NCBI GenBank assembly: GCA_013203315.1
Contig: JABMQJ010000026.1
Span: 1-64,000, forward strand
Reading direction: 5' to 3'
Length of the DNA stretch: 64,000 nt
Origin: Candidatus Omnitrophota bacterium
Lineage (GTDB): Bacteria; Omnitrophota; Gorgyraeia; JABMRN01; RBG-13-46-9
A program made the translations under genes and the position numbers. Positions 1-60,781 of this stretch are shown one piece after another. Positions within the stretch are counted from its first letter, which is position 1. Each line of letters opens with the position of its first letter. The notes beneath the pieces are model-generated. The model ran no database searches, was not told the DNA's origin, and was given only the letters and a program-made list of their open reading frames with translations.

Positions 1-141
1 GCGAATATTGCAGACGCAGTTGCAAGTGATAGAACAGCACCAACACCTGCCGATACACGAACGGCAGAACAAGCTCCTCAGGCTGCACCGGCAAAAGCAG
101 ATGCGAATATTGCAGACGCAGTTGCAAGTGATAGAACAGCA
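1..141 (+). repeat. 39-bp exact direct repeat (ANIADAVASDRTA) with 102-bp period, in frame
   Basis: gcgaatattgcagacgcagttgcaagtgatagaacagca occurs at 1-39 and 103-141. Confidence 0.95.
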
Positions 142-3100
142 GCAGGACAACAACAAGCACCAGCAGATAGTGGAAGCGGAGCATCTCAAGTTACAACAGA
201 TTCTGCGGCACCAAAAGTAGGACCACAAGGAGAAGTGGGAGCGGATGGGCAAGTAGGACAGCAAGGACAACAAGCAGGACCGCAGCAAGGACAACAAGCA
301 GGACCACAGCAAGGACAACAACAAGCAGGACCAGCAGTAGGACCACAAGCACAAGGCCGACAAGGTATATTTAACCGTGCACGGAACGTGATTGGTAACG
401 CGTGGGATGCATTAGTGAGAATTGTTGGCGGAAAAGACAAAGCCGCAAAAGCAGCCGCACCTGCTGCCGCAGCGACACCTGCAGCCGCAGAAAAAACAGA
501 AACACCACAAACATTGCCCAGGCCGCCGACACCGACAGGAGAAAACTTATCAGAAAATATGCCATCGTACGGAACATTACTAGGCCCATCACCACTTAGC
601 TCGCTACCGGCAGGAGCTGTAGGAGCACCCGCATTTTCGCCGCCGGCAGAATCACCAAACCAAGCCGCAGACGTAAGCCAGGAAGCACTACCTGCAGTCG
701 GAACAGAAACACTATCAGCTGAAGAAGCCCAAAAAGCCGCTGAAATATTCGCCAAAGAAACTGAAAAAGCAGATGCTGAAGAAGTATCTGCAGTAGATAC
801 AGATGTTGCAGCTACAACTCCAGTGGAAACATCGGTAGCGCCGGCAGAAGCTGCTGCACCACAAGACCAAGCCACTGCTGAAACCACTACCACAGACGTA
901 AGCCAGGCAGTGCCTGTAGTTGAAGCGCAACAACTCTCAACCGAAGAACAACAAGCACAGACCGAAGAACAAGGTACGCTATCAGCCGAAGAAGCCCGGG
1001 AAGCTGCTGAAATATTTGCCGGTCAAGCCGGAGTAGATACTGAAGCAACATCTGCAGTAGACGCAGACGCCGCATCTGCAATCGGGCCAGAACAACTCTC
1101 AACTGAAGAAATACAGGAAGCCGCTGAAATATTCGCTGATCAAGCTGCTGAAGCAACATTTGGAGAAGCAGTCGCTGAGACAGAAGAAGCTGCAGCCGCC
1201 GCTGAAACCACAGATGCACATGCCGAAAAGACGCTTCCAGGTAGAATCGTTGCCCACTTCGTGGATTCGATAAAAGAAGACTGGAAAAAATCGCCGACAA
1301 AAACCATTGTAAAGAACATCGGACTTATAGGTATTGGTGTTGCCCTGGTAAGTGCTTTCTTCCCTGTAGTGGCAATAGGATGCGTAGGCCTGGGCGCCAT
1401 AGGCGGTATTACAGCAGGATCAACCGCAACAATACTCGGATTAATGGACTATAAGAAGCTTATATATGACTGGAAGAGCACAAAGGGCATAGCCCACAAG
1501 ATCTCGTTCCTCTCAGGAGCGGTTTTAACTACCGGATTAATCGGTGCAACAGTAGGCTTACCTTTAATTGTAAGCGTAGTTGCGATAGCGCTCGTTGCCA
1601 AATCCGTCTCTACACTTGTCGATGCCTATTTCACATTTAAAGACGGTAAGTTCAGCAAGACATCGTTTGCTCTGTCCTTTACCCTTGCATTGGTTGCATT
1701 CAGCATGCTGTTTGGAGGTATGGATGTCCTTACCAATGGCGTGAATCAGGCAACAGGTTTTGTAGACTCCGAAGGCCTGGATACAATTGTTTCTGACACA
1801 GGAGATATCTCTATCGGAGATGCCACTGTCGTTGACACAGGAGATGTCTCTCTGGAAGATACCGCAGATATTTTTGGAGAAGGTGTCCAGGATACAGCTG
1901 ATGTAGCTAATGAGATTGATTTAGATAATGAGATCAAGGGAGCCGCTGACGCTAGCAAGGCAGTAGGCGATGTTACGAAGGAAGCTATAGACAAAGCATC
2001 TCAAGTCGCCAAACGCGTGAGACCATCAAATGCTCAGAGAATAATTCGATTACTTAATGGCCCTGCCTCAAGACAGCGAATACAAAATAAAACTAAAGCA
2101 GCCATCGTGATTGGCTTCGTAGGAGCACTACTAACATCGGCTGGTATTGCAAGTACAAAAGGCCTAAGAAAATTATTCCAACGCGCCGGTGAAGATGCCG
2201 GAACACAAGCAAACGCTGCATCTGTACAAACCGACGGATCTGTAGAAAGTCTGACAAGTTTGCCAACACCTGCATCACGCACAGAAGGTGAAGATGCCGG
2301 AACACAAGCAAGCGTTGCACCTGCACAAACCGACGGACAAGCAAAATTAAAAGGTCGAGTCAAACCACAAGACCAAACAAGAGCGGAAGCTTCACCGAAA
2401 GACCCAGCTGCCCCGAAAGGCCCGGCGCATGTGGTACCTCCAATAGCCGCACCTGTAGCCGCACCTGCAGCTGCAGTAGCACCGAGAGTCGGACCTCCAG
2501 CACTGCCACCTGCCGCAGTCGCACCTGCAGCAGTAGCACCGAGAGCCCCACCTGTACCTACATTGCCACCGGTTACACCAAGCACAGAAACAGAAGAAGC
2601 GGTTGATGCAGAAGTAGTAGAAGAAGCGGTTGATGCAGAAATAATAGAATCCGCCGCGCCGACACCAAAATCACCGGCTAATAAAGCAACACGAGACGAA
2701 GCAAAACATAAGCAATTAAAGAAAGTTCTTGAAGAAGCGACAACGCTTGAAGAATATGCCATAGCTCAGCTCGAGTTGGAGAATGAAGAAATAGAAAATA
2801 TACTGGCGAACCCGCAACCGGAACACCAGGAAAGAATAGAAGATTATGAGAAAAAATTAAAAATAAACAAAAAGGTAATAAACCTCCTCAAAAAAGACGT
2901 AAGGGCTAAAAAAATATTTACAAAAGAAGGATATAGGAGCCTGAAAGAAAAATTTGAGGAGTTGAAGGCAACTAGGCTATATAAAGAAGCGCTGAAAACT
3001 ATAGGCGACATAGATAGAGAGTTAGAAGAAAAGGAAGATAAGTTAAAAGACTTAAGGAAAAATCTGGAGGAACAGAAAGAGAGGTTGGGTAAACTAGCCA

Positions 3101-6100
3101 AAAGTGAAAGTCCGGAATATAGGGAAAGCATCGAAACCGGAATATCCAATCTGGAACAAAAGATAGAGAAACTTGAAAAAGAGAAAACAAAACTAGAAGC
3201 CAAAAAAGCAAAACCGCAGAGGATTATACGTAATTATAAAAATCAGGAAAGACTCAAAGCAGCGCGCCTTATCGGAAAGAAAAAGACCGCGCGGAATGCA
3301 ATAGGCGACAGGATTAAGCTCAGCGTAAGAGACGGTTGGCTGGGTAGCTTGATAGATTGGGTGGAGAGACGTGTTTTAGGCAAGAAAGTAAGGGGCGGCA
3401 AGAAGGTAAGGGGCTGGTTGATTGATAAATTTACTAAGTGGACCGGGCAGTGGAAAGGTAAAGAGCTAGATAAGGTAAGGAAGGGTCTTAAAGATTCAGA
3501 GAAGCCATGCCTTGCGGAACTTATTATGAACTGGCTCACGTTTAAGGTTTTCAATAAGGAAATCAAGAAACTCGATGCCGAAGGCCACAAGGCCGTGCAA
3601 GAAGTCAGAGAGCGATTTATGTCAAGCATGGAGACGGAGCTGGGAGATATAGAAGACATAAAAGCCAAAACCGGTACTGTGATAGGCGATGTTGATAAAC
3701 GAATAAACGCAATAAACGAGAGAATTGCGAAATTAGAAAAAATGAAAGATTCTGTAGGCGCAGAGGAACTAAAAGCAATAGAAAAACAAATCGAAGAACT
3801 GGAAGAGATGCGGAAAACTGCGAATACGCTCACGGGAAAACTGCAAGACCTACCGGGCGACCTTGGACAGGCGAGGCTCGTGGTTATTTCAGCCGAAGCC
3901 TTCGCATCATTGAGCGAAAAATACTTAAATACCAGCCAGGAACTTATGGAGATGGAGGCACAATTAAAGGTTACCGAAAACGGTGAAAGAAGAGATGAGC
4001 TGCAGGGAGAAATTGCGGACAAAAAAAGTGCTATTGACGGCATTTCTACGGGCATAGAAACAGTTTCAAGCCAGGCAGAGAAAGCAGAGATATCAGCGCA
4101 GAAACTTCTTACAATGACTGTTCTGGCAAATACGAAAAAGGGAGAAAAGGTTTTTAATGAATATGTGCAACAAAAACATGAAGGTTTGGAAAAGAAATAC
4201 AAGAAATCGCATGACCTTAACGCAATAAGGGCTGAAGCCTTCGCGATTGCGGGATTATGCATTTTAGCAGAAGAAGGATTTCCAAGCACGAGGATGGAAC
4301 ACCTGGGCGCAGCCTTATTCATGACCAGCGGCAATGTAATCGCGGAATTAAAGACGGGTGAAGGTAAAACAACAGTGGCGCGTTTTGTGCAATATCTCGA
4401 TTCCTTCAGAGGCCCCGGCAGGACAATAGTTCTTCAGCCCACAGAACTCTTTGCCATACGAGACGGTTCGGGTTCAGGCCGCATATTTGCGAGGCTCGGA
4501 CGAACCGTTGGCGTGGTTAAGCAAGAGATGACCGAAGAAGAGAGAAAAGCGGCCTATAAGTGCGATGTTGTGTACATCTCCGCGCAACAGTTCGCCTTCG
4601 ATGTATTACACGACTTATTCCAAATAAGCGAGGAGCAATTGGCAAACGGCGGCGGATATTTAAACACAGGAGCCAAGACCAAAAAAGAATATCTCGAGGT
4701 ATTGAGGGAAGAATTTGCAGGCATAGCTGATGAGGTGGATAGTATATTAATAGACCAGGCCGCAACCAAGTACATAATGTCGTTAGGAAAAGGTAAAGCG
4801 GTTACCGAGGAAAGGGCAAAAGAAATACAATTACTGCTTGATATCGCGAAAAAACTTAATACCGGCGAACAAAAGGTTAAGATATTGACGGAAGAAGAAG
4901 CAAAAGCGCAAGGCCTGGAAGATGGCGCCAAGCCCAAAGCCACCGGATACGCGTATGTCGTCGATAGACACCATAGGAGTGTTACAAGAGGAGGAATGCT
5001 GGAAGGAGAAGGCTTAAGAAAAGAGCTTATGGAGCATAAAGATGCCTTCACGGAGGCAGGAATTGATATTGAGAATGCCACAGATGAAGAAATCGAGAAA
5101 CTTGGTAAGCAGCTGGATAAAGCGGTTGAAGCGGAACATTTATTCAATCATAACTCTGACTACGTAGTGCAGGTTGATCCTACCACAAACGATGTCGGCA
5201 TAATCTTGGTCGCGCATGAAACAGGCGTTAGCCAGTTCGGCCAGAGACTGCACGAAGGATTACACGCATTCCTGGAGGCAAAAGAAGGCTTGACCATACA
5301 CGAAGACGTCCCGACAGAAAGCTCCGCGACAGCGGCTACGATTTTCGGTCTTCTAGGTCACTTCTCGGGTATGACCGGTACAGCCACGCAGGGCAGGGCC
5401 ATGGACTTCTTCGCTAAAACCTACGGGCTCAAGGTGAAGGTTGTACCTTCACACGTGCCTTCGAGAAGAACGGATATTCCGATGAGGATCGTTAGTGACG
5501 ATATGTATATAGAGGAATTCCTTAAAGATATAATGGAATCAGCGAAAATAGGAGCACCGGTACTTGTTCCGGCTGACGACATTAGATGGGCAGAGGTCTT
5601 GCACGCGGCAACCAATGCCTATACTAAAGCCACAGTAGCGGCGGCCAGACCCGGTGACAAAGAAGCGCAAAAAGCCTATGAAGAGGCCAGAAAAGAATTC
5701 GAAAACAAACACAGGGATTATACCAACGGCGAGAATGCCGAGAGTGCGCTTAATTTCCTCGATGAAATTTCAAAGGGTAACATAGAAGCTACACCGGTTA
5801 ATTTGCAAGTTCAGTTTGACGCGAAATCAGGCAGTGATTTTGAATATCAGCAGGTTATCGTTGGCGGCGGCGGATACGCCTGTACCGTAACCATTGCCAC
5901 TAACATAGCCGGTAGGGGGACTGACGTAAAGATAAAGGGTAAAGCTAAGGCCCTCGGTCTTAATGTAGTCATTCCGAACGTTGTTAATTCCGCAAGGATA
6001 GAAGGCCAGAACAGGGGTAGGGCCGGCAGACAAGGAGCAGCAGGCACGTCAAGTCAGCTTGTTTCCGCAAGCCAATATAGAGAATTCATAGAAAGCGCCT

Positions 6101-9100
6101 TTAAGGGCGTTGATGAGACGCTCATGAAGAAAGCGTTACAGGTAGATTTCTCTAGCGAACAGGGGCAAAAAGCGGCAAGGCGTTATATAAAAATGGCCCA
6201 GAGTGAAACGGAAAGAAGAAATCTGGAAAGCATAACCAGCCAAGCTGAGCAGGACAAGGTAGAGTTTACCGCGCAACTTGCGATGAGGGCACTACGAGAT
6301 AAGGTTGAATCGAGCGAAGTGGAACTCGATTCGGCAGCACAGAAATTTATATCGGAAGGGATTTCAGATTTGATGAAAGATTGCACCAATGACGATGGCT
6401 CTATTAATGTCGAGAAACTTGCAAGAGAACTGAAAGACAGGTTTGGGATAGATTTACACGGCGACACATCTCAATTAGACGAGCTTAAATCCCCGCAGGA
6501 AATCGAAGACTTTGTAATGTATCTTGTGCATGAGCACGTGGTAAAAGCGACAAGGAATAACAATATTTCCCATGTCCTCGGTGACATGATGGAGGATTTC
6601 CAGGAAGCTGTGCGCAATGCCGTTGATGAAAAGACAGGCCAGTATGACGCTAAGAAATTCGCTAAACTGGTAGGAGAAGCGCATGCCAAGGCCATGATCG
6701 CAACAGGCAGAGCGGTTGAGACTCCGTTAACAGAGGACTCTATTAAAGAATTCATAGAGGACCAAAAAGAACAGGCCGAAATTCAGGAAACAGAGGAAGC
6801 GAAGAAGAATGAGATTGTGCTTGACGGCGAAGCACGAAGAATTAGTAAGGCAGTCAAGAATGTCGAAGCAAACGGAACGAAATTTACGGCAGGCGCATTT
6901 GTCGGATTGCTCGACGTAGCAGCCGATATATATGTTACCGATAACGGCAGGATAGCGGTTGTTAATGACGTTGTGGTTGCCTCAAGCGATAGCAAGATAG
7001 CGGTAGGCAGCATATATTCACAAATTGAAACCACAGATGCAAGCAAAACATACGAGCACCAGGGGCAATCAAAGCTCGAGGCGAAAATACTGGACCTTGG
7101 AACAGGGGAAAGAATCACCATAGTTTACGGAATTGTCGTGGAAACGCGAGCTGATGGAATAGAGATAGGCAATAAGGTTACTTATGATGAAGTCATAGGT
7201 GATGTAGGCGGTAAAGCCGCTGTGGAAAAATACCATCGCGATCAGGAAGCAAGGGCTCTAAGCGGAAGTCAGACAGCGGGAACAGGTGAAGCAACTGCAG
7301 AAGGAGCCAGCGTTTCGACCCATAGGGCACCGGCCGGAAAGGGTGTAGTCGTGCATTACGTGGCACGGGCTTCGCAAGCCGGTTCCAGAGTAGATATCGG
7401 CCGGGCAATGAGAGATTTCAAAGCGAAGAAGGTGCGCGAGGCAGAGAAGGCAGCCGCTTCCGAAATTTCTTTAGAGGCTATAGCCGAAGAAGAATATACT
7501 CCTCAGTTTGATGTTGGAAATGACATTGACGTTGATTTAGACGATTCTGACGGTGAAACTGTCCAACCGGTCATGGTAGAAGCTGAAGATGCACCGAGCA
7601 ACTTAGATATTATCCAGGCATTAAGCGAAGCCAGAACCGAAGATACCCATCAAAAGTCGATTTGCGTTGTGCTGCCGCCGGACGATGACGACAAAGAACA
7701 AATATTGAGAAGCCCTGAACTTTCAAACGCATTAAGAAATCGGAACTTACAAGAAGGCGAAACGCTTGTGGTAACCGGTTATGTAAGCGATGAAGGAGAA
7801 GTTAAAATTACTACATATCAGCTTTCCGCTGAGATTGCGGAATATTTGATTAGCGAATACAGAAGTGCCCAAGAGAGCGGAGTAGTCGCCGGTAGCGAAA
7901 GAGCAGCCCTTGAAGAGATATTTGACAGGGTGTTCTCACCGACGACCGGCACGACAGAAATCGCCGGACATGTCATAGCGACGTTGGAAAAAGACGGAAA
8001 AAGGGCCGTCATTGACCTCGGCAAAAAAGACGAGGTTAATCCACTTGTCATTAAACAGATAAATCTCGCGGGAGACCAAAGACAAGCGCAGGTAGACGCT
8101 ATAATGAGCGGAAAATCTTCCGAAGATATTCACGCGCCCGAGGTTATCGAGGTTAATGGTAGATTAATTATAAAGGTAGGGGATGTATCAATCCATAAAA
8201 ACGCAAAGCTTGAAGACGGTGTGGTGGTGTGGGATTCGCTTATTGCGGACAATTCCGAGATCGGAAGAGGGGCGCTAGTGAGAAATTCTACATTACCGAA
8301 GGTGCCCGTTATCCTCGAACCGCATAGCGCAATCGACGGTATAAACGATGAAATTGTTATAGGCATGGACAGGGTTAGAGTAAATACCGGAGAGGCTCTC
8401 TCGGGAAGATTTAGAATGGAAAACGGCAAGGCCGTACAAATCCGAGAGACAGTCGACGTTAAAGAAAGATATGAATTAGAAGCAGCAAGTATTACCAAAG
8501 TCACGGCGATAAGTCGAATAAAGGAACATATACCCACATTTGTTAAAAATGGTTATCGCAGCTTCTTAAAATGGTCTTTCAAGCATATGCCGACATTTAC
8601 TAAATTAGGATTTGGATTATGGAACATAGTAAGTTGGCCTGTGAAGAAACTATATAAGGCAGCTAGCAAGTTATTAGATAGAAATGCCAAAAAGATTAAG
8701 GCGGCGGAAGAAGATTCCGCAAAAGTGCGAAAAGCAAACCTTGCATTGGGGGATCTCTTATTTGATGAAGGACCTATACAAAATTTAGATATATCAAAGA
8801 GTGAAGACCTGAGAGGGAAGGCCAGAGACCTCAGGCTTGCCGTAGCCGAAGATCCGGAGGACATAATTATAGTAGAAACTGTCCCGGACGTTGGGGACGC
8901 GGAAATTAAAGAGCCAAACACCGTAAGAAAAGACGAACTAGAAAAGGCGCTTAAACTTGCCAGGGCGGCTGTTGCTCTCGACCCGGACAACGTCGAAGCG
9001 AAGAAAGAGCAGGCTGTCATATTGCATTTACTGGGCAAGGGTAAAGAGGCAAAAGAAGTTGCCGAGGAAGCTTTAAAACATAAATCCGCCAGAGGAGATA

Positions 9101-12100
9101 TTGAGTTTGTAAAGCATGCTGCCAGGATAGCGGAGACGCAAGGCGACCACGACCTGACTATTAAGACGTGTCGCTCGCTTATAAAACTTGTTCCTGAAAA
9201 AGAAAAAGCTAAATTGCGTACAAGGCTAGCAGAAGCCCTCGCGAAGAAAAAAGAAGCGGTGGATAAGGAAAAAGAAGGTAAAAAAGAGACGTGGGTAAAT
9301 AAGGTCATCCCTGTCATAAAGAACCTCTTAGGATTCCATTATCTCAAGACGCACTCCAAACCAAGGGCCTATTCCGCGATCGCAGTGCGTTCAGTGTTTG
9401 CTGTGCTACTTATTGTCTTGGCCGCCAAATGTTTAATACCGGTTGTTAGTGGAATTAGTTTGATGAAGACGGGAATGGTTATGGCCCAGGTCATCATGAT
9501 TATTAACAAGATGCGATCCAAAGACAAGAAAGCTCCGGGAGACAAGAAAGCTCCGGGCGTTGGGATAGGTAAGCGATTACTCGGTTCGCTTACCGGCGCG
9601 GACAAGAAAGATGCCTCTAAGCTGGAATACAGAAGTCAGCGCTTTAATAACAAAGCGATTAAAGTTACACGTGCATTAGGAGCGATTTGGCTTATAGGAC
9701 TTTCTTTCTATCTCGGTGATTATAGCGGCGGTACATGGAGCGGTATATGGAGTGCATTGAAGACCAGCACTATGCCGGCTGTAATGCTCAATCTCGGGCT
9801 AAGCCTACTCAATTCAATAAATACCAATATACCGAGTTGGTATAGAGCAACGAGGAAGTGGAATTCGGAGAGAAACCTTGACAAGAAAGCAATTGCGCAA
9901 CTTGAGAAAAACTTTAATGAAGAAGGCATAAGCACAGTAGAAAAAGCAAATAGATATGCAGCACTCGCCATGCTGGATGAAGCAAGGCGCGATGAGCTCA
10001 TTACCGAGATGGAAGATGAAGGCATGGAACAAGCATTGCAGAATATGCTCATACAGCCTGATAGCCCTGACGCTGCAACGCAGAAAGCGATTGATAGTGA
10101 AAAGGAAGAAGCGTTAGGAGCACTTATTGAACTTGCGAAGTTATATCACAAAGCCGGCGAGACTGACGGTGCTATAGACACTTTGCTTATTGCCATTGAC
10201 AGAGCTAAAAACAAAGTTAAAGACGACAAAGGCAAAGTAGCTATTAGAATGGCGCTGGCCGACATCTATCTGGAAAAGAAAGATTATTCCGGGGCCTTAA
10301 AGCAGCTTGAGTTGGCAAGAAATATGGATCCACAAAATGCCGAAATATTCAAGAAAATGATAGAGGCCCATCAAGGCCTGGGCGAGAATGAAAAGGTTAT
10401 ATCCTTATTAGAAGACGCCCTCAGGAAAGATATAACGAATGCAGAAATATTAGGTCTCTTGCAGGATGCCTATATCAAATCCGGCAGGGTCGCGGATGCA
10501 GCAAAAGTAGTAACGCAAGCCTTACAGGTAGAGCCAAAAGACGAAGACTTATTGCCGCTACTTGAAAAGGTGAAAGACGCAATAAAAGAAAGATCACTGG
10601 AAGCGCCGGAAGATATCGAAGATGCAAAAGGCGCCTGCGAAGCATTATTGACAGTGATAAAACAAGCGGATAACATTAAACCGGCCCAAAAGTCTCTGGA
10701 TATAGCACTTGATCTGGTAGACGAGGAAGGCATGGACAAGGTATTGAGATTCGAAGATATCCTATCAGCCATTGTGGATAGCGAGGGATTAGATTTCTAT
10801 CAAAAAGCAGTCCTTGTAAGAAGAGTCGTTGACAGGATAAATGGCCGCGACGGCATTATAAATGAAGAAGAGGTCGGGCGCCTGATAGCAGCATTCGATA
10901 ATACTTTAGGCCAGGCGAAGAATCTAAGGATAAAAGCTGCCCTGGAAATGGGCCTTGCAATAATAAACATGAAGCGCGATGAAGCGCATCTTGAAGATGG
11001 CCAGAAGAAAGCGCTTATCCATATTGAAAATGCAAAAGGTTATTTGAGGAAGGCTTCGGTTTCGGAAGACAGCCTGGAGAAACTCTATGAGCTGGAGGCA
11101 GAAGCGCGTTCAATCACGCAGCATATGGTAATAGGTGATGGCCTGGAGAGAAAAGGCGAATACGCTAAAGCGAAACAGCATTATGAAGAAGTGCTTAAAG
11201 TTGGTTCTGACAGCTGGAAAGCAAAAGCCCATGTCAAACTGGGCGGAATAGCGATGAGAGAAGAAGATTACAAAGGTGCCACCGGACATTACGAGGAAGC
11301 TATCAAGCTTAACCCAGCGCTTCGTGAGGGCTTAAGAGTACCTCTCTTTGAGGCTTGCGCGAAGATAGGAGACGCTACGAAAGCGATCGAGACGTATAAA
11401 GAGATGAATCCAGATCAAAAAGCAAGTCTCTCCGATGATGATGCTAAGGACAAGATGGCCGGATTGCTTAGAGCGAAGATGAAAGGACAGGATAGCCTGA
11501 TTGAAAGCCAAGATGAAGCATTTGAAGACGACCGCTCCAGGCAGGCACAAAATGCATTATACAATTCCTTAGATAAGGCCATTTCCCTGCAGAAAATGCT
11601 TCTGGAACTTTGCCCGGATGACAGCGTAGCTAAAGGTAGAATGGCTGAACTCGAGCAAAAATTAGAAGTAATAACAAGTGCCAGACAAAAGAGAATAAAT
11701 GCCATTCATCCTATTATAAGCGGACTGGAAGGTAAGAAAGCGGAAAGTGATAGGGATGGAGCTATATATATAGGTAAGGAGCTCATATCCCGCTATTCAG
11801 AACTCCTGGCCCTGGAAACTGACAAGGGCGAAAGGGCGAAGGTATATGCCGCGCTTATCGCTATCTATTTCGAACAGGGTAACGTAAGACAGGCAGTGGA
11901 TTATCATAAAAAAGCAACGGCTGAAGGCCTTACCTTCGAACCTGCCCGACAAAAACTTGTCGATGCGGCAAGAGACTCTGCTATCGAAGAAGCAGAAGCA
12001 ATACGTTACTCAACAAGTGCCGGTAAATTGGAAAGAGCCAACGCTGCGTTAAGACTTGGAACATTATATGGACTACGCGGTGACACAGAAGAAGCCAAGA

Positions 12101-15100
12101 AACAGTTCAAGTGGGCTTACTGGAGATTAGATAAAGGCCGCAGCGCAGAAGCAAAGTCAGGTCAAGAAGAGCTTGCCAAGGAAGAAGATGAGAAAGCGAA
12201 GCCCAAGATAGCAGCCGAGGTTGTAGAGGCTGCCGATGATGTCGAAATAAGAAAAGCATTAGAAAAATTAGCCCTTAATCGCAAGAGTGCAATTACTGCA
12301 CTTAAACGCGCTAAACACCTTGTAAGACAAGATAAGAAGAAGCGCGAAGATATTGATCAGAAGATAGCCGCTCAAAATATTAATCTTGGCGATGTCTATT
12401 GCCAGATGGGAGAGTCTGACAAAGCAACAGCCTATTATAAGCAAGCTATAGAACTTGGTAAAGACTCTCAAACAGCCTACGTTGGTCTTGCCAAAGTGGC
12501 GTTAATGAAAGACGAGACAGACGAATTTGTAAAGAACCTGAGCATGGCAAAGGATTCAGGCGCAGATATCAGACAAGAATTCGGCTATAGCCTGAAAGAT
12601 AAAGTCGTGAAGACATTGAAGGAGAAAGTAGATAGCCTTATCTCAGACAGTGAATTTGATAAGGCAAGAGAAACCCATGCATTATTAGGCGAAATATCAA
12701 GCGAGGACGCCGAACAATTATCTGACCGCATGATTGAAGTTTATGAAGGGCAACTAAAGCCTTATCTGGAGAAGAAGAAGCTTACCCGATCCGATAAACC
12801 AAAAGTGCAGCGGTTACACGCGTTGCAAGGGGATGCTTATAGAGCTATCGGAGATAATAAAAAGGCGCGCGAAGCTTATCAAAAAGCTCTTAAACTTGAT
12901 AAACGTTCCAGAAGGGCGCAACTCGGACTTGGACATATTGCTCTGGCGCTTGGAAACTATAAAGAGGCTAAAAAATTATTCAATAAAGCAGCAAAAGACG
13001 AGAGCTTGAGGAATGAAGCACTTACAGGCATGGTGAGGGCATATATCGGTCTTGGTAATGTTGACAAAGCCTGGGAGATATTTAAAGTAATCGCATTAGA
13101 AGGCAAGGAAGCGGAGGAGATAAAAGGCGCGCTTAAAGGGCTGCTCGAAAACAAGGCTGAAGAGTTACAAAGGGATATAAACGAGGCGGTTTCGGCTCCT
13201 ATAGTTCTGCCGCTTTCTGGATTTGTCTACAATCCGAAATCGAAAGGAACGGCAAAATTAAAAGACGTTTACAAAAAACTGTTAGAACTTGATCCGGAAA
13301 ATGAAGACATAAAAACACGATTATTCGAACTCGATCAGGAACCAGGTGAAGAGAAAGATTCTGCTGCTTCGCTCGCCGAAGAAGGTAAGTTTGATCTCGC
13401 GCTCGAGATAGACCCATCATGCAGCGCAGCGCACCTGGGCCTTGCCAGGGAATTTGAAGCGGACGGAGATCAGGAAAAATCCATAACCGAGTACGAAAAG
13501 GCCCTTGCGGGCAAAGGCCAGGCAGCCATAGATGCCGGCATGAGGCTTATAGAGTTGTATGGCCACGAAGATAGCGCCCCTGAAAAACAGGAAGCGGTAG
13601 TCGAAAAGCTGGCTCAGAAAGCGTTCGACACAGACGGCAACATAGAAAGACTTTTAATCAAAATAGAAGAAAGCGCTACAGACAATAAAGTCCTGAGAAG
13701 CATGATAGATGCATATATAGAGCTCAAGAAGAAAATAAAGACGCTGGAAGCCCGCGAGGAAGCACTTAAACAAAGACGCAAGAGTTTGGCCGCAAGACAT
13801 GACAGACAGGAAGACCAGGCTGGGGAGATAACGAAGAAAATAGCTGATACGAAGACAAAATTGGGAGACAAAAAGGCCAAATACGAAGAAAAAGCTCTGG
13901 AAGTTCACTTGTATAGGGAGAATGCGAAAAAACATCAAATAACCGATGAGTTAAGAAATGAATGGAAGGTCGCAGAATTAGAGAAGAGCAAACTCGCTTC
14001 AGAGGTTCAAAGTCTAGAGACAAAACTTGATAAGCTGGAAAAATCCCAAAAAGCAGTTGAAGAAGCCCCGAGCCGCATAGATGCGGAAGATAAATCACTG
14101 CAGTCGGAATTAAGCAAAATTAATGGCGAGCTCAGGAAGGCAAGAAAGAACCTCGCGAGCCTCGTAAAAGTTCAGGGGCATTTCGCCGCCACAGAAAACA
14201 CAGCGACCATTCTTATGAGAGCCGAAGCTTATCTCAAAGTAAGAAAAATTGGCAAGGCAATGAGGGAAGCACTAAGGGTTATTGATAATGAAGACAGAGA
14301 AGTTACCGCAAGTGAGCTAAGCCGCGCGCATATAATAATTGCGCGAATACATGAATTATCACGGGATAAAAAAGAGCAGGAGAAAGCCACAGAGGAATAC
14401 CTGAAGGCGCTCGAGGCGGATCCGATGAATGAATCAGCCTTGAGGTCGCTTGCAGGAAAACTGGAAGCCGGAAAACTAAGTGATGCAATACGCGACAGGC
14501 TTATAAGGGTAGCCGAAGAATTATCCGATGCAGGACGCTTAAGCGCAATAGTAGATATTATTGCAACGCAGAACAATGTAGAACTTCTAAATATAATATT
14601 GGAGAATAAAGATATTGAAGAGGAAGAGAAGATAGAACTTGTTGTCAGGCTTATTGATTATAAGATGGACGGCGACGGAATAGACAACGAATTCTTTGCC
14701 GTTCTGGCAGGGTTGGAAAATGCGGAAGGCAAAATGAAATGGGTAGGTAAGGTAGGCCTTGCATATGTCCATGCCAGAAACGGAGAACTTGAAAAAGCGC
14801 GCGCAGCATTAAAAGAAATTACCGCTAACGAAAAAGGCCTGAAGAATCAGGTATTGAGGGTAGGACTGGAAATAGATCTGTTAGAAGCCAGAAGAAGCGT
14901 GGATAGGGTAAAGAGCGGAATAACACTATGGATACGCCTCTTCCAGGCTAAGAGGGCCCTTAACAAGGTAGTAAGGAAATACGAAAAACTTGCTCGTATA
15001 AGGCCTAAAACAGCCGAAGCAATGAAATCGAGACTGGCCGAAGAAATTAGAAAACAGGGCGAAGATATTGAAAAGCTTTCGCAAGCAGCAGCCATCAAAT

Positions 15101-17781: not shown

Positions 17782-17800
17782 TATATGGAGGCGTTTCACT

Positions 17801-17830
17801 TTTACATTTTTCTAAAAAATGTGATATAAT
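17801..17830 (+). promoter_or_regulatory. Putative sigma70 promoter of the glycosyltransferase cluster
   Basis: TTTACA (17801-06), 18-nt spacer, TATAAT (17825-30) preceded by an extended -10 TG. The ATG lies 8 nt downstream and there is no SD. Confidence 0.6.
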
Positions 17831-17838
17831 TCTAATGT

Positions 17839-19311
17839 ATGGACGCAAAGAAAACCATATTAGTGCTTATAGCCATTTTACTCCTGGGACTCTTGCTAAG
17901 AATCCACGACTTAACTACCGAGAGCTTATGGTTAGATGAGGGGCAATCAATCAAAATGGCCAGCTTGGAGCCATTCCACATCATAAAACAATGCACTAAA
18001 GATAACCACCCACCTTTATATTATATCATTCTTCACTATTGGATTAAAATCTTCGGCGATTCAGAATTTTCAGTGAGATTTTTGTCTGTTTTATTCGGCT
18101 TTATAGCGCTTATTGTTGTCTACAAACTGGGAAGCTTGCTTTTTAACAGGAGGGCAGGCCTATTAAGCGCTTTACTAATGAGCACATCAGTATTTTACAT
18201 TGCCAATTCCCAGGATGCAAAGATGTACTGTCTGGGGGTTCTCTTGACATTATCTTCCATGTATTTTTTCATAAAGCTTTTTGATAAGAGGGACATTGCA
18301 ATTTCAGCGGGATATATCCTATCGACTTTTTTATTGATATCTACCCTTTACCTTGGTTTTTTTATAATATTGGTCCAACATATCTTTCTTATCACGGTAC
18401 TGTTATTATCCAAAGGACGCTACAATATTAATTTTAAGAAATGGTTCACGATGCAATTTATATTGCTTATTGCATATATGCCTTGGCTTTATTTCCCAAT
18501 ATCGCGATTAATGGATATCGCAAGCAACCCAACAGCAATATCGGAAACCCAGATAGCCCCTTCTGTTATTAGCGCGATAAAGATATTTGCCGGTTCACAT
18601 CCTTCATTTTTCGTATTTATTGTAGTGGCTGCGATTTCATTAATTCCGGCAGGCGCCAGAGATACCCGCAATATTACTTTTTCATACTTTAAGAAGATTT
18701 ATTTTCTAACTTTGTGGTTATTTATTCCTACGGTTATTATTCTGTGGTTTATAATTTTCAGATGGAAATTCTTTTTTTTAGCCGCCCGTTATTTAACCTT
18801 AGGTTCAATGGCGTTTTATTTATTAGTGGCACAAGGTATAAATAATATAAGAATGAGATATTTAAGAATAACGGCGATCTGCGTTGTTATAACAGTCTCT
18901 CTCATAACAACCTGCTCATATTATGTAAGAACAACTAAAAACCAATGGAGGGAGGTGGCCTGGTACATTGATGAAAACGCAAAACCGTGGGATGTTTTGT
19001 TGTTTCACAAAGGTTACTTCCAGGAAAATGTTTTTGATTACTATTCCGAAAAGCAGGATCTTATAAAAATACCGCTCCCCGAACAGACGCGAAAAATACC
19101 GATGAAGATGAAAGAAATAGTCATAGGGATAAACGAAAAGGACATAGAAAAGGCGTGGCCACGCATAAAGAGCCGTGATAGGGTCTGGCTTATATTGTGC
19201 CACGATCGTGACCGTAAGGGGTTGATTAAAAAAAAGCTTCGCAAGACCTTTAAGGAATCGCACGTAAAGAAGTATTTTGGTATAGAGGTTTACTTATTTG
19301 AGAAGACATGA
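17839..19311 (+). CDS. GT-C fold membrane glycosyltransferase (GT39/GT83, PMT/ArnT-like)
   Basis: SLWLDEG, HPPLYY, SEFSVRFLS and SQDAKMY motifs; many TM helices; C-terminal soluble domain. Confidence 0.85.
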   Translation: MDAKKTILVLIAILLLGLLLRIHDLTTESLWLDEGQSIKMASLEPFHIIKQCTKDNHPPLYYIILHYWIKIFGDSEFSVRFLSVLFGFIALIVVYKLGSLLFNRRAGLLSALLMSTSVFYIANSQDAKMYCLGVLLTLSSMYFFIKLFDKRDIAISAGYILSTFLLISTLYLGFFIILVQHIFLITVLLLSKGRYNINFKKWFTMQFILLIAYMPWLYFPISRLMDIASNPTAISETQIAPSVISAIKIFAGSHPSFFVFIVVAAISLIPAGARDTRNITFSYFKKIYFLTLWLFIPTVIILWFIIFRWKFFFLAARYLTLGSMAFYLLVAQGINNIRMRYLRITAICVVITVSLITTCSYYVRTTKNQWREVAWYIDENAKPWDVLLFHKGYFQENVFDYYSEKQDLIKIPLPEQTRKIPMKMKEIVIGINEKDIEKAWPRIKSRDRVWLILCHDRDRKGLIKKKLRKTFKESHVKKYFGIEVYLFEKT

Positions 19312-20756
19312 AACTAAAATTTAATAAAACCATATTGTTACTCCTTGGAATTCTGTCTCTGGGATTATTGCTGAGGATTTATGGATTAAACAAAGAAAGC
19401 TTTTGGCTGGATGAGTGTATCTCCGTTAGGGTAGCCAGCCTTAAAAATGTATTCCTTGTTATTCTCATACGGTATAAAAGTTTCCACCCGCCTTTTTACT
19501 ACCTTCTTTTACGAAATTGGATTAATATCTTCGGGAGCTCAGAGTTTTCTGCAAGATTTCTCTCGGTTATATTAGGATTTTTTGCAATAATAATGACCTA
19601 CAAAGTCGGAAGTTACCTTTTCGACAAAGAAACAGGCATTTTTGCTTCTTTAATTCTGGCCCTATCCAGGTTCCATGTATACTATTCCCAGGAAGCCAGG
19701 ATGTATAGCTTAATGCCGCTTTTTGGCCTTATTTCCATGTATTTTTTCGTAAAACTCCTTAGTGAAGATAAATATGGCAAAAGTTATATTGTTACTAACA
19801 CCCTACTTATATATACACATCACAGCGGCCTGCTTATAATCCTTGTTCAAAATATATATTTTCTTACTGTGCTTTTTTTCGGGAAGAAGAAGACTTTAAA
19901 AATTAACCTTAAAAGATGGGTTTTGTCGCAAGCTGTAATTGCGATTCTATGCATACCTCTTGTGCGGTATTGGATAGTCTTTTTGTTAAACATACAGGGA
20001 AATCCATTTTGGATACCACAACCTTCGGCCACTTCGCTGATGAAGACATTTACTGATTATTCCGGGTCTTTTCCGGTTCTTTTATTATTTTTGCTACTCA
20101 TAGGATTTTCACTAATCACATATAAAAACACTAAGCCAAAAATGAATTTATCAGGCGGTAGTCGCTATTACCTGCTCCTTTTATGGCTCTCGGTGCCGAT
20201 AGTTGTGCCATTCGCGATTTCACAGGTTTCGGCTCCCCTTTATACGAGTAAGTACATTATGACGGCCTCACTAGCTTTTTACATCTTAGCAGCAAAAGGC
20301 ATAAGCATTATAAAAAACAACAAATTAAAATATGCCGTAGTTTCTATAATCGTCATTTTCTCACTGGTTAGCATTGTAAAGCAATATAAACGCATTGATA
20401 AACCACAGTGGAGGGAGGTTTCCAATTACATCACAGAAAATGCCAAACCGGACGATTTATTAATGTTTAACGACCCGGCCTCAAAGAAAGAAATTTTCAA
20501 CGACTATTATTTTAAAAGAACCGATGTGGAGGAAAAGATATTTCCGGGTAAAATAAATGCACCGTATATGTTGCCAACGTACGAAAATGTTGAAAAATTA
20601 TTCGAGTCCGTGAAAGGGCATGATAGAGTTTGGATAATATTATCCCATACCCTTGACGGAGATAAGGTTATCAAGAAAACATTTAAAGAATCCTATAATA
20701 TCGTGTACTATGGACGGTACAATTCTATCGAGTTATTTCTATTTGAAAAAAAATGA
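19308..20756 (+). CDS. GT-C fold membrane glycosyltransferase (GT39/GT83), tandem paralogue of the preceding gene
   Basis: SFWLDEC, HPPFYY, SEFSARFLS, YSQEARMYSL and QWREVS motifs; ATGA overlap with the upstream gene. Confidence 0.85.
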   Translation: MKLKFNKTILLLLGILSLGLLLRIYGLNKESFWLDECISVRVASLKNVFLVILIRYKSFHPPFYYLLLRNWINIFGSSEFSARFLSVILGFFAIIMTYKVGSYLFDKETGIFASLILALSRFHVYYSQEARMYSLMPLFGLISMYFFVKLLSEDKYGKSYIVTNTLLIYTHHSGLLIILVQNIYFLTVLFFGKKKTLKINLKRWVLSQAVIAILCIPLVRYWIVFLLNIQGNPFWIPQPSATSLMKTFTDYSGSFPVLLLFLLLIGFSLITYKNTKPKMNLSGGSRYYLLLLWLSVPIVVPFAISQVSAPLYTSKYIMTASLAFYILAAKGISIIKNNKLKYAVVSIIVIFSLVSIVKQYKRIDKPQWREVSNYITENAKPDDLLMFNDPASKKEIFNDYYFKRTDVEEKIFPGKINAPYMLPTYENVEKLFESVKGHDRVWIILSHTLDGDKVIKKTFKESYNIVYYGRYNSIELFLFEKK

Positions 20757-21487
20757 ATAATTCCATAAACCAAACCGATGTTAAGCTTTCAATCATCATT
20801 CCGGTTTTTAACGAATACGAATCATTATCCGAGCTTCAAGAGAGGCTTCATAGGGTAATGGAGAAACTTTCCTCACGGTATGAAATTATTTACGTAAATG
20901 ACGGTAGCACAGACCGCTTTCGCGAAACAATGGAGAAGCTTTACAGCGATTATCCTAATGTAACCGTTGTGTCGCTAGATAAACATAAAGGTAAGAGTGA
21001 TGCTTTGGCTGCCGGTTTTACGAAGGCCGACGGCGATTGGATAATTACCCTGGATGGAGATTTACAAAATCCCCCCGAAGAAATACCCAAACTCCTGCGC
21101 TTTAGAGAAGACTTCGACTTTATCATAGGAATAAGAAAAAATAGGAAGGATAATTTCTCGAGAAAGTTCGCATCGTTTTTGGCAAGATTTTTCCGCTTAG
21201 TGATACTCGGAGATATCACCAGGGACGCAGGGTGCGGGTTGTTCATTTTTAGAAAAGATATTTTGGGCTTTTTCCCTTATTTCAGAAATTTTTTCCTATA
21301 TTTTTCGCTCCTGGCAAGGGCGAAAGGCTTTTCCGTAAAAGAGGTGGAGATAGAACACGAAGAGCGTAAATACGGGAAGACAAAATTCAACAATATCCTC
21401 AAGAGGGCATGGTACGGCATGCTCGGCATATGGGGCGTATTAGTACTTAAAAACAGGTTCTTAAAAGACAGAATTAGAATGCCGTAA
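20753..21487 (+). CDS. GT2 polyprenyl-phosphate glycosyltransferase (Dpm1/ArnC/GtrB-like)
   Basis: LSIIIPVFNE, YVNDGSTD, TLDGDLQNPPEEIP and DAGCG motifs. Confidence 0.85.
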   Translation: MNNSINQTDVKLSIIIPVFNEYESLSELQERLHRVMEKLSSRYEIIYVNDGSTDRFRETMEKLYSDYPNVTVVSLDKHKGKSDALAAGFTKADGDWIITLDGDLQNPPEEIPKLLRFREDFDFIIGIRKNRKDNFSRKFASFLARFFRLVILGDITRDAGCGLFIFRKDILGFFPYFRNFFLYFSLLARAKGFSVKEVEIEHEERKYGKTKFNNILKRAWYGMLGIWGVLVLKNRFLKDRIRMP

Positions 21488-21514
21488 GCTGCTCAACCGT
21501 GTGATTAAGGTGCC

Positions 21515-22357
21515 ATGCTAACTTTTTTTACTTCTCTAAAATCATTCCGTGGTCAAATAGCAGTTATACAGCGTAATGCCATAAAAAGCTGGACATTACT
21601 AAGACCCAAGTGTGAAATTATACTGCTTGGCGACGAAGACGGGGTAGCCGAGGCCGCCCGTGAATTCGGAACAAAGCATATACCGGATATAGAACGCAGT
21701 AAATGCGGCATACCGCTAGTTAATTCCATTTTTAAAAAAGCACAAAACACAGCTAACAATAGCCTGATGTGCTACGTCAATCCGGACATAATTCTTCAAA
21801 ATAACTTTCTGGATGCCGTAAAACGCGTATCGTTTCATAAATTTTTGATGATAGGAAGACGCCGGGATATCGACATCAATAAGCCATGGGACTTCATGGC
21901 GCCGGATTGGGAAAGTAAGCTACGCGAATATGCTAAAAGCGCGGGAAAACCCCATCGGCCTTACGGTAGCGATTACTTTGTTTTCCCACGAGAAACCCGT
22001 TGGGAAATGCCGCCTTTTGTAATCGGACACCCAAGATACGACAATTGGATTATTTGGAAAGCGCGCTCTCTTAAGATGCCAGTAATTGACGCCAGCAAAG
22101 TTGTTAATGTCATCCACCAAAACCATTGCGGTGGATGCGCATCGGTTCAAAAAAGCAAAGCCGCGCGGGAGAACATGAGTCTCGCCGGCGGATGGGGCTA
22201 TATCTATACAATTCTAGACTCAACCCATGTCATGACCCGAGACGCCGTGCTACGAGTATTCGGTTATCGATATCGGCATTTACGTTGGGTCCTGCCAACA
22301 GCAATTCCCGGCATGCGAAGTTTTTTACGATTTCTCTTATTACGTAATAAAACATGA
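21515..22357 (+). CDS. Putative GT-A fold glycosyltransferase-like protein
   Basis: QRNAIKSW, YVNPDIIL, GSDYFVFP, YDNW and HQNH motifs; located in the GT cluster. Confidence 0.6.
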   Translation: MLTFFTSLKSFRGQIAVIQRNAIKSWTLLRPKCEIILLGDEDGVAEAAREFGTKHIPDIERSKCGIPLVNSIFKKAQNTANNSLMCYVNPDIILQNNFLDAVKRVSFHKFLMIGRRRDIDINKPWDFMAPDWESKLREYAKSAGKPHRPYGSDYFVFPRETRWEMPPFVIGHPRYDNWIIWKARSLKMPVIDASKVVNVIHQNHCGGCASVQKSKAARENMSLAGGWGYIYTILDSTHVMTRDAVLRVFGYRYRHLRWVLPTAIPGMRSFLRFLLLRNKT

Positions 22358-22374
22358 TTAAAAAGGGGTAAGAA

Positions 22375-23058
22375 GTGATTAGCGCGGTTATGTTAAGCTG
22401 GAAACGGCCCGAGAATGTTTATAAAATAGTCCCGGAGCTGAGAAAAAACGAAGCAATAGACGACATAATAGTATGGAACAATAATCCTGATGAGAAGCTC
22501 TCATTTTTAAAGTCTATCGAAAGGGTAACCGTCATAACCCCGGCTGCGGACCTCGGCATGAACGCAAGATGGTACGCTAGCTTACTCACAAAACACGACA
22601 CGATTTATATGCAGGACGACGATTTGATAGTGTCAAATAGCGCCATAAAAAACCTGCATAGCGAATGGAAGAAAGACCCCGAGGTTGTCCACGGCATATG
22701 GGGCAGGTCTTGCAAGTTCAACAGATACTGGGCCATTACAAGCGCCTATCCGGAAGCGGAAATGGTAATGACGAGATCGGTAATATTTCATAAAAAATAT
22801 GTCCGTAGTTTTTTTAAAAGAATAGCAACATTCAAAGAAGACATGCTTGAATTAATCAAAAAAGGTATGGAAGACATATGCTTCAGCTATTTTGTAATGT
22901 CAGAAACGGGAAGAAAAAATAAAACACACAGGCTCTTTAGAGAAATCGAAGAATTGCCGAACCCTCATTCGATCAAAAAAAGACCAAAACACTGGACAAA
23001 TCGGACGAGAATGATGAGATATTGCCGGAAAGAATTTGGCATTGACAGGCCTAAGTAA
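22375..23058 (+). CDS. GT-A glycosyltransferase resembling GT64 (EXTL2-like)
   Basis: IVWNN, TIYMQDDD, WKKDPEVVHG..GR, MVMT..IFHKKY, EDI and H...R motifs. Confidence 0.6.
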   Translation: MISAVMLSWKRPENVYKIVPELRKNEAIDDIIVWNNNPDEKLSFLKSIERVTVITPAADLGMNARWYASLLTKHDTIYMQDDDLIVSNSAIKNLHSEWKKDPEVVHGIWGRSCKFNRYWAITSAYPEAEMVMTRSVIFHKKYVRSFFKRIATFKEDMLELIKKGMEDICFSYFVMSETGRKNKTHRLFREIEELPNPHSIKKRPKHWTNRTRMMRYCRKEFGIDRPK

Positions 23059-59823: not shown

Positions 59824-59976
59824 CTATGTAGAGTTAAATAAAGTGCTTGAATGAAGACAACGAGCAAAACGTAAGATTTTCGACAGGCATTTTTTTTGTC
59901 AACTAACTAAAAGCTTTAAAAAAGTATTACCTATATGTATGATGCAAGTTTTACGCAAGTACTGGAGGAACCCAGA

Positions 59977-60567: not shown

Positions 60568-60781
60568 AACAAGGTGTCTATACCCTGTATATGGGGGCGT
60601 CCCCATAAAGATGATTTTTTTTGAAATAAAGTGAAATATTCCGGGATTTAGGGGATTATACATAATAGAAGCTTAAAAAAGCTTGGCAAAAATCTACGTG
60701 TTTTGAGTTTCGTATCTACGTCTTTTTTTATGTCCTGAAACTTAGGACATTTAAAAAGGGATAAATAAGGAGATCTACGTG

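Follow-up and report, generated by a model that had tools for sequence, protein, structure and literature searches.

Bacteria with 1.5-Mb genomes must somehow synthesise proteins of 5,000 to more than 80,000 residues, insert them and export them, and the chief hint in the literature as to how is a private motor of the SecA type that forms part of these proteins. The stretch of DNA analysed here, called the window (64,000 nucleotides, nt; positions 1-64000 of contig C25), comes from an Omnitrophota draft genome of 1.5 Mb in 32 contigs, 97% complete. Positions 1-17781 of its plus strand form a single open reading frame (ORF) of 5,926 codons with no stop before 17779-17781. The ORF is open at the first base of the contig, its 5' end, and encodes the C-terminal part, at least 5,926 amino acids (aa), of one giant Omnitrophota membrane protein. 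An earlier reading of the letters alone, hereafter the original prediction, had placed a complete SecA-type translocation motor in the middle of this protein. We asked whether the embedded segment is a SecA, how much of a SecA it is, and what it might do in a protein of this size.

A SecA-derived module inside the giant protein

All six SecA motifs quoted in the original prediction were found, in SecA order and in one frame, within nt 4342-6036 (aa 1448-2012). The motifs, the Pfam matches and an AlphaFold model together gave the following map of the ATPase core and of the preprotein cross-linking domain (PPXD), where NBD stands for nucleotide-binding domain and pLDDT for the predicted local confidence of the model.

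4141-4782, plus strand: N-terminal part of SecA NBD1, with Walker A and Walker B DEVD; pLDDT mostly >90
4342-4371 (aa 1448-1457), plus strand: Walker A AELKTGEGKT, with Lys1456
4729-4755 (aa 1577-1585), plus strand: Walker B DEVDSILID
4783-5316, plus strand: PPXD, inserted into NBD1 (Pfam and AlphaFold)
5257-5292 (aa 1753-1764), plus strand: SecA motif GLHAFLEAKEGL
5317-6096, plus strand: rest of NBD1 with motif III, and NBD2 with motifs V and VI (P-loop_SecA)
5368-5385 (aa 1790-1795), plus strand: motif III GMTGTA
5890-5931 (aa 1964-1977), plus strand: SecA motif TIATNIAGRGTDVK
5995-6036 (aa 1999-2012), plus strand: SecA motif RIEGQNRGRAGRQG

The domains that define a canonical SecA core were recognised one after another. 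A DEAD-type NBD1 with Walker A GxGKT and Walker B DEVD matched Pfam SecA_DEAD at 160.2 bits (cut-off 24.6). The PPXD within NBD1 matched SecA_PP_bind at 32.2 bits (cut-off 23.5; profile positions 39-110 of 110), and in the AlphaFold model it aligned to SecA chains. NBD2 with motifs V and VI, the latter holding the arginine finger, matched P-loop_SecA at 48.6 bits (cut-off 27). A search of the Protein Data Bank (PDB) with phmmer returned 24 distinct sequences at E<=1e-3, all of them SecA or SecA2, the best being 2ipc_A (4.2e-43). Canonical SecA is a stand-alone protein of ~800-1,100 aa; here the corresponding segment is embedded at aa ~1381-2190.

The structural model agreed with the sequence searches. 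The fold of aa 1381-2300 was computed from a 75-row alignment, which comprised the query, the SecA of the same genome and 73 of 150 listed proteins, and it reached a mean pLDDT of 84.5 and a predicted TM-score (pTM) of 0.78. In Foldseek the top ~30 rows were SecA or SecA2 (best 3jv2_B, 4.6e-33), and unrelated helicases appeared only from ~1e-6. In VIA-align, 690 residues could be aligned with 6itc_A at Z 36.8 (residues 1-844 of the model, 33-763 of the chain), the root-mean-square deviation from 5eul_A was 4.2 over 611 residues, and DEAD-box helicases came far behind at Z ~20-22. Identities in the structural alignments to SecA chains were 22-30%. NBD2 carries a helical insertion of ~65 aa (aa ~1861-1925; model helices 481-544).

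Walker A (G-x-G-K-T), DEVD, MTGTA, motif V (TIATN-AGRGT) and motif VI (R-x-E-x-Q-x-RGR-GR-G) are all intact. The NBD2 motifs TIATNIAGRGTD and RGRAGRQG are present and conserved in both the SecA alignment and the orthogroup alignment, and many ATPase-motif residues occupy columns that are invariant across the 75 aligned SecAs as well as in the four-member orthogroup. The module is also the best-conserved part of the protein, with 47-53% identity to its relatives P0002 and P0031, compared with 25% in the region of tetratricopeptide repeats (TPRs). Judged by its motifs, the module is presumably a working ATPase. Taken together, aa ~1381-2190 (nt 4141-6570) are almost certainly a SecA-derived module, and the claim of a SecA-type ATPase inside a giant membrane protein was borne out by Pfam, NCBIfam, the PDB search and the AlphaFold model alike.

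A scaffold helix and a probable reduced wing

The original prediction had called the motor complete, and had proposed SecA_DEAD, SecA_PP_bind and SecA_SW as the families against which to check it. The first two scored above their cut-offs, as described; SecA_SW, which covers the scaffold, wing and two-helix finger, scored 16.1 bits (cut-off 26.7) on aa 2057-2180, profile positions 5-119 of 200, with the finger part unmatched. The same profile gave 196.5 bits over positions 2-198 on the canonical SecA of this genome. The model places three elements beyond NBD2, in which HSD and HWD denote the helical scaffold and helical wing domains.

6157-6381 (aa 2053-2127), plus strand: long scaffold helix (HSD) of 75 residues; AlphaFold helix 673-747
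6409-6558 (aa 2137-2186), plus strand: reduced helical wing-like domain (HWD-like); AlphaFold helices 757-806, pLDDT 80-90 to residue 800
6565-6702 (aa 2189-2234), plus strand: low-confidence helices at the position expected for the finger; pLDDT 52-64

Confidence in the model is high to about aa 2180, falls to 52-64 and drops below 50 beyond aa 2236. Up to model residue 800, pLDDT is at least 79 in all but two 10-residue blocks of the scaffold and wing part. A hidden Markov model (HMM) built from 71 canonical SecA C-terminal parts scored 25.6 bits on aa 2042-2185 (positions 21-162 of 286), and hhalign of the three-member orthogroup against the canonical C-terminal alignment gave a probability of 95.1%. 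Since the sub-threshold SecA_SW match, the canonical HMM and hhalign concur with the model, a diverged scaffold helix and wing appear to be retained. Of these two elements the helix has good support, and the wing is a reduced one.

The profile parts that hold the two-helix finger (IRA1) went unmatched, namely positions 120-200 in SecA_SW and 163-286 in the canonical HMM; the hhalign match did not extend into that part either. A SEC-C zinc tail was likewise not detected in the module. A finger picked out by eye in the relative P0003, in the 75-row alignment, was given no support by the canonical HMM. The word "complete" thus holds for the motor core, the PPXD, the scaffold helix and a reduced wing; it does not extend to the finger, which went undetected, or to the tail. 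For this orthogroup "complete SecA" overstates what is there and "lacks scaffold and wing", the wording of a 2023 preprint, understates it. The latter reflects the limit set by a Pfam threshold and not a structural fact, at least in this orthogroup.

The gene is contiguous

A module found in an unusual place in a draft assembly might have been put there by the assembler, through the mis-joining of a secA fragment into an unrelated long ORF. The genome is a draft of 32 contigs, and the gene begins at a contig edge, in a collapsed repeat:

1-141, plus strand: 102-nt direct repeat at the 5' end, in which window positions 1-39 recur at 103-141; it continues upstream of the contig

The 31-mer at window positions 9-39 has a depth of 140-235, compared with 12-17 across the gene, and short contigs extend upstream. 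The 5' 1,500 nt of the window matched no other contig of the same genome. From the repeat, the ~10-fold depth and the upstream contigs it follows that the gene starts in a collapsed tandem repeat and that its real N-terminal end is outside the contig, so that the full protein exceeds 5,926 aa. The original prediction had put the SecA domain more than 1,400 aa from the N-terminal end, which holds for the visible ORF but not for the protein, whose true N-terminus is out of view.

The borders of the module were tested with independent assemblies and with orthologues. The locus is present in Logan contigs of four runs, all from one freshwater study, which were assembled independently but may represent the source sample itself; no RNA data set was listed among those that contain it. 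In runs X2 and X3 a 30,216-nt contig spans window positions 112-19000 with 0 differences, and in run X1 a 25,061-nt contig spans 2287-19000. No joints were reported in X1-X3, and these contigs cross both module borders with 0 differences. A colinear orthologue, P0002 from Ca. Omnitrophus magneticus SKK-01, is 36% identical over aa 1113-3076, with an alignment that runs on to aa 3968, and P0003, from an Omnitrophica CG11 metagenome-assembled genome (MAG), is a second orthologue with the same layout. In both of these other assemblies ~2,000 aa around the module are colinear with the protein studied here. Moreover, the module is only ~35% identical to the secA product of its own genome. Contigs from three runs and two orthologues in unrelated assemblies exclude a chimeric join for practical purposes, and we put the chance of an artefact at next to nothing. 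The chimera check proposed with the original prediction therefore came out in its favour: no joins at the module borders, a separate secA, and the same layout in two other assemblies.

At the P0002 locus (L008) an in-frame stop and a change of frame (2576-2581, 14119-14149) break the gene into three ORFs that lie side by side, the last of which can still be aligned with aa 4093-4361 of the protein studied here. The split could be due to errors in a single-cell genome or to real decay.

The module is a diverged paralogue of the housekeeping SecA

SecA_DEAD matched exactly two proteins in the genome, the giant ORF and a protein on contig C28. The latter is the separate canonical SecA that the original prediction had proposed to look for: it has 1,043 aa, the full Pfam set and a zinc tail (CPCGSG...CC), and is 94% identical to a SecA of a "Candidatus Omnitrophica bacterium". 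SecY was matched once in the genome (448 aa).

A FastTree phylogeny was built from 83 of 179 SecA cores, namely all 34 proteins of at least 2,500 aa and, from the remaining 145, a sample of 49 in which one in three was taken and the genome's own SecA and P0031 were added; SecA2s carry no label in this tree. The module grouped with P0031, P0002 and P0003 (support 100), and this group nested in an 11-row clade of giants and one fragment (support 99). The genome's own SecA stood among the canonical sequences. A second clade of giants, of 22 rows, held Elusimicrobia, Jidaibacter and eukaryote-labelled proteins. The label "giant" required 3 changes on the tree and 26.7 with shuffled labels, a clustering that is descriptive only, since the giants had been picked by length. 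In this tree the module falls outside the stand-alone SecAs, in a clade of giants apart from the SecA of its own genome. On this sequence evidence we read the module as a diverged SecA paralogue, distinct from the housekeeping enzyme.

Close relatives are few. Among 1.84 billion representatives there were three (788, 717 and 474 bits); the next match scored 188 bits, followed by scores at the level of ordinary SecA. P0031 (1,573 aa) is the sole stand-alone close relative in that list and looks like a fragment. Among 185,579 species genomes, orthologues occurred at the two Omnitrophota loci only, and none was found in 40 related genomes at E<=1e-60. The arrangement as such is nevertheless common: when open frames of at least 1,800 aa were considered, SecA_DEAD exceeded its cut-off in 13 of the same 40 genomes, in frames of 1,874 to 20,415 aa.

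P0002 is named "membrane protein containing SecA DEAD-like domain protein" at NCBI. P0003 pairs its SecA module with Peptidase_M48 and Peptidase_M50 in precomputed Pfam annotation, which hints at a link between embedded motors and membrane proteolysis. P0008-P0030 form a separate clade of proteins of 3,300-5,300 aa that combine SecA_DEAD with ankyrin, TPR or DnaJ; among its members are proteins from Candidatus Jidaibacter acanthamoeba, an Elusimicrobia MAG and animal-labelled records (Harpegnathos saltator, Chironomus tepperi, Adineta steineri).

Architecture of the rest of the protein

Outside the module the visible protein consists of the following regions. Hydrophobic, transmembrane (TM)-like segments were called where a 19-residue Kyte-Doolittle window reached at least 1.6.

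1-1290, plus strand: low-complexity, repeat-rich N-terminal region; A/S/T 38%, P/G 15%
1303-2157, plus strand: hydrophobic (TM-like) cluster 1, aa 435-578 and aa 698-719 with an acidic loop between them
2638-4140, plus strand: stretch rich in K and E and seemingly helical, which precedes the SecA module; conservation with P0002 starts at aa 1113
6898-9228 (aa ~2300-3076), plus strand: conserved middle region with no recognised fold before the TPRs at aa 2973-3069
9364-9816 (aa 3122-3272), plus strand: hydrophobic (TM-like) cluster 2, with a K-rich loop at aa 3164-3224
10024-15276 (aa ~3342-5092), plus strand: TPR arrays and charged helical stretches; many TPR families above Pfam cut-offs, e.g. 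TPR_19 at 115.6 bits
16258-17778 (aa 5420-5926), plus strand: C-terminal region without a recognised family; hydrophobic tail aa 5887-5912

The original prediction had the module flanked by coiled coils and by two TM clusters. The two hydrophobic clusters are there (aa 435-719 and aa 3122-3272). P0002 has a cluster in a position similar to that of cluster 2, and in P0003, too, the SecA core is followed by a TM-like cluster. The coiled coils found no confirmation: aa 880-1400 contain 30% E+K, but a crude heptad-periodicity test found no coiled-coil window upstream of the module. In the middle region (aa 2281-3110) PDB and Pfam searches gave TPR matches only and PADLOC nothing. The TPR families together fill aa ~2973-5092.

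The C-terminal region (aa 5401-5926) had no Pfam match at E<=1 beyond noise and no match to a PDB sequence or in PADLOC, and the scoring of 8,000 candidates of 289-921 aa yielded nothing at E<=0.01. Atlas scores were at most 0.76, with a weak JAB-like lead (0.75), and a single-sequence AlphaFold model was unusable (pLDDT 35.5). An HSHP motif lies at nt 16801-16812 (aa 5601-5604) and is followed by ...ED...LLGGFGIEH, a pattern that may resemble JAB/RadC metalloenzymes; among the searches, the weak Atlas lead is the sole pointer in that direction.

Possible roles of the embedded module

Because the module needs ATP, both it and the hydrophobic-free stretch that holds it (aa 720-3120) would be cytoplasmic. 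In the mechanism that we propose, the module would be anchored at the inner membrane, on its cytoplasmic side, by hydrophobic segments of the same protein, in place of being recruited as a soluble factor. Canonical SecA relies for its recruitment on a lipid-binding N-terminus and a SecB-binding tail, and the covalent membrane tether would stand in for these functions. Unfolded polypeptide would be clamped between the PPXD and NBD2, and cycles of ATP would feed it into a membrane channel, most probably the single SecYEG of the cell. In this way segments of the giant itself, or of other giants, would be inserted or exported, and the downstream TPR arrays would form a docking platform. SecYEG-coupled, ATP-driven handling of polypeptides for the export or insertion of giant proteins is a tentative proposal, to which we give a little less than an even chance; for the identity of the module and an export or insertion mechanism taken jointly, the balance tips slightly in favour. 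The original prediction had spoken of a private export device, an idea that is plausible and that, in the part of the text available, West-Roberts et al. (2023) had already put forward as a hypothesis.

Several points weigh against this proposal. We infer, from sequence and model, each of its three working steps, ATP hydrolysis, polypeptide binding and SecY docking. The NCBIfam SecA equivalogs score far under their cut-offs (NF009538, 251.1 bits vs 814; TIGR00963, 242.9 bits vs 800), and the two-helix finger is missing from both profile matches, as reported above. About 2,400 aa between the hydrophobic clusters hold no hydrophobic segment, which leaves little visible extracytoplasmic mass to export, and positive-inside charge counts around the hydrophobic segments are ambiguous for topology. 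The giant gene is not flanked by secretion genes: its neighbours are glycosyltransferases and housekeeping genes, and a promoter-like site separates the giant gene from those downstream. Finally, the rarity of the orthogroup (three close relatives; 0 of 40 related genomes) limits comparative inference.

Some of the same observations would suit a role away from the translocon. With the finger that enters SecY undetectable, and most of the visible protein seemingly in one compartment, the module might act as a membrane-tethered clamp or remodelling hub, independent of SecY, that grips or unfolds clients for assembly, quality control or proteolysis. Related giants join the module to Peptidase_M48 and Peptidase_M50 (P0003), to DnaJ (P0008) and to TPR or ankyrin repeats. 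Against a hub, no protease domain was found in this protein in the Pfam scans. The PPXD, scaffold helix and wing contact SecY in solved complexes, and all three appear to be kept here. The model also fits SecY-bound chains best, with TM-scores of 0.65-0.67 (6itc_A, 3din_A, 3dl8_A), a fit that may reflect the conformation preferred by AlphaFold; in Foldseek the same model scored 0.46-0.56 against most full-length SecA chains without SecY. A hub is possible, but we lean away from it.

A third reading keeps the motor and changes its substrate. The module could be an accessory motor acting in trans, in the manner of SecA2, with the TPR arrays as its receptor and with other giants as the proteins exported or inserted; a candidate client is a second giant ORF on the same contig, of 16,618 aa. 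The visible SecA-bearing protein itself has little to export, TPRs are protein-binding repeats, and the 16,618-aa ORF has enzyme domains but no SecA. The largest giants of the genome (16,618 aa on C25 and 5,220 aa on C11) are dissimilar to the SecA-bearing protein, and the genome has only two SecA_DEAD matches. Against a division of labour of this kind, the two giants do not share an operon but stand apart, with ~43 kb of housekeeping genes in between, no second SecY is present, and the SecA2 model TIGR03714 gives 227.8 bits vs 930. We regard it as unlikely. A specific form of it, in which a nearly whole SecA that has kept its scaffold helix and wing but lost its finger is permanently wired into the membrane and fused to a TPR receptor of ~2,000 aa, as a trans motor for other giants, is a distinctly long shot. 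If true, it would give diderms a counterpart of the SecA2 pathway in fused form, and would account for the way in which very small cells cope with polypeptides tens of thousands of residues long.

The original prediction had also raised the engagement or jamming of a host's SecY by a module delivered into a prey or host cell, that is, an injection device. Omnitrophota have been reported as predatory or host-dependent, and giant proteins have been implicated in prey attachment (West-Roberts et al. 2023, as far as the available text goes). Yet the module, which requires ATP, lies between the protein's own membrane anchors, within the 2,400-aa stretch free of hydrophobic segments; secretion or injection genes are absent nearby, and the sequence bears no sign of release of the module. 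This part of the prediction found no support, and we consider it very improbable. Export or insertion of giant proteins by a tethered, SecYEG-coupled module is, with the reservations given, the likeliest of these readings. The protein is a compact and tractable member of its kind: its ATPase motifs and PPXD are intact, a scaffold helix and wing can be recognised, enzyme domains are lacking, and the model is of high confidence.

Neighbouring genes and other giant ORFs

The giant gene, with a G+C of 0.44-0.47, is followed by a short gap and then by a cluster of lower G+C.

17782-17838: gap of 57 bp after the giant gene, with an 11/12 promoter-like site at 17801-17830

The cluster (window 17782-23058; G+C 0.36-0.40, below that of the giant gene) encodes glycosyltransferases (GTs): two PMT_2/GT-C-like proteins, an ArnC-like GT2 and a GT64-like protein, along with a 280-aa ORF. 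Beyond it lie dinB, hflKC, ilv/leu, aro and lipopolysaccharide genes, and a stand-alone M48 peptidase is encoded at 56352-57149. The neighbouring genes do not help to assign a job to the module.

The second giant ORF (16,618 aa) begins ~43 kb downstream on the same strand and runs from window position 60755 past the window's end at 64000 to C25:110611. It is directly preceded by a sigma-70-family gene at 59935-60567. Its Pfam domains are HD, OEP-like, GH5 cellulase, cytidine deaminase, GDPD, HAD, nucleotidyl transferase, class-II fructose-bisphosphate (FBP) aldolase, HATPase_c and HEAT, with no SecA domain, and it resembles the "multi-enzyme" or Archaeovorin type of giant. Elsewhere in the genome, contig C29 (9,077 nt) is one stop-free frame of 3,025 aa throughout, and its first and last 41 nt are identical. 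Given this end identity and a 9,036-nt unit divisible by three, the best explanation is a collapsed, in-frame tandem repeat of ~9 kb from another giant gene.

Comparison with known systems

Secondary SecA_DEAD proteins of Planctomycetes, Verrucomicrobia and others have been described next to three genes related to type I secretion (Kamneva et al. 2015, PMC4452313). As far as the consulted part of that paper describes them, those proteins resemble the module in being a second SecA_DEAD protein of diderms without the full canonical domain set. The neighbourhood differs: no ABC-exporter, HlyD or TolC-type family was found among the 41 other window ORFs scanned. A group of SecA_DEAD proteins of 590-677 aa forms its own clade in our tree, away from the module.

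The SecA2 proteins of Gram-positives and mycobacteria are likewise a second, divergent SecA beside the essential one, and like them the module may serve special, very large substrates. In contrast to SecA2, the module is embedded in a giant and falls well short of the SecA2 models (TIGR03714, 227.8 bits vs 930; TIGR04221, 151.7 vs 725). SecA2 systems with a SecY2 also differ from this genome, which has no SecY2 and, at 97% completeness, one SecY match.

With housekeeping SecA (B. subtilis 6itc_A, T. thermophilus 2ipc_A) the module shares the order NBD1-PPXD-NBD2, apparently continued by HSD and HWD, the fold and all ATPase motifs. It departs from that enzyme in being embedded and flanked by membrane segments of its own protein, and in carrying insertions in NBD2 and in the scaffold helix.

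The closest counterparts are within the phylum. According to the accessible text of West-Roberts et al. (2023, bioRxiv 10.1101/2023.11.21.568195), the majority of giant proteins in Omnitrophota contain a SecA DEAD helicase domain and a preprotein-binding domain, both divergent, and a 2026 preprint (10.64898/2026.06.07.730766), in the portion available, lists an architecture cluster of 20 PF07517 proteins among long Omnitrophota proteins. The protein studied here matches the modules in the accessible text of the 2023 preprint in most respects: SecA DEAD and PPXD domains in a very long ORF with TM-like regions in an Omnitrophota genome, a separate SecA of normal length and a SecY, a divergent long-branch clade, SecA_SW below the Pfam threshold, and common TPRs. 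It differs from the giants stressed there in being smaller (at least 5,926 aa) and in having TPRs but no enzyme domains, and the largest giant of its own genome (16,618 aa) is without SecA. Whereas the scaffold and wing are reported there as missing, the scaffold helix and a reduced wing were recovered here. Given that report, within the same limits of the text, and the embedded SecA_DEAD in 13 of 40 related genomes, the arrangement is not new: it is already described for the phylum, and this protein belongs to that class, as a rare orthogroup. What it adds, modestly, is the apparent retention of a scaffold helix and of a wing in reduced form.

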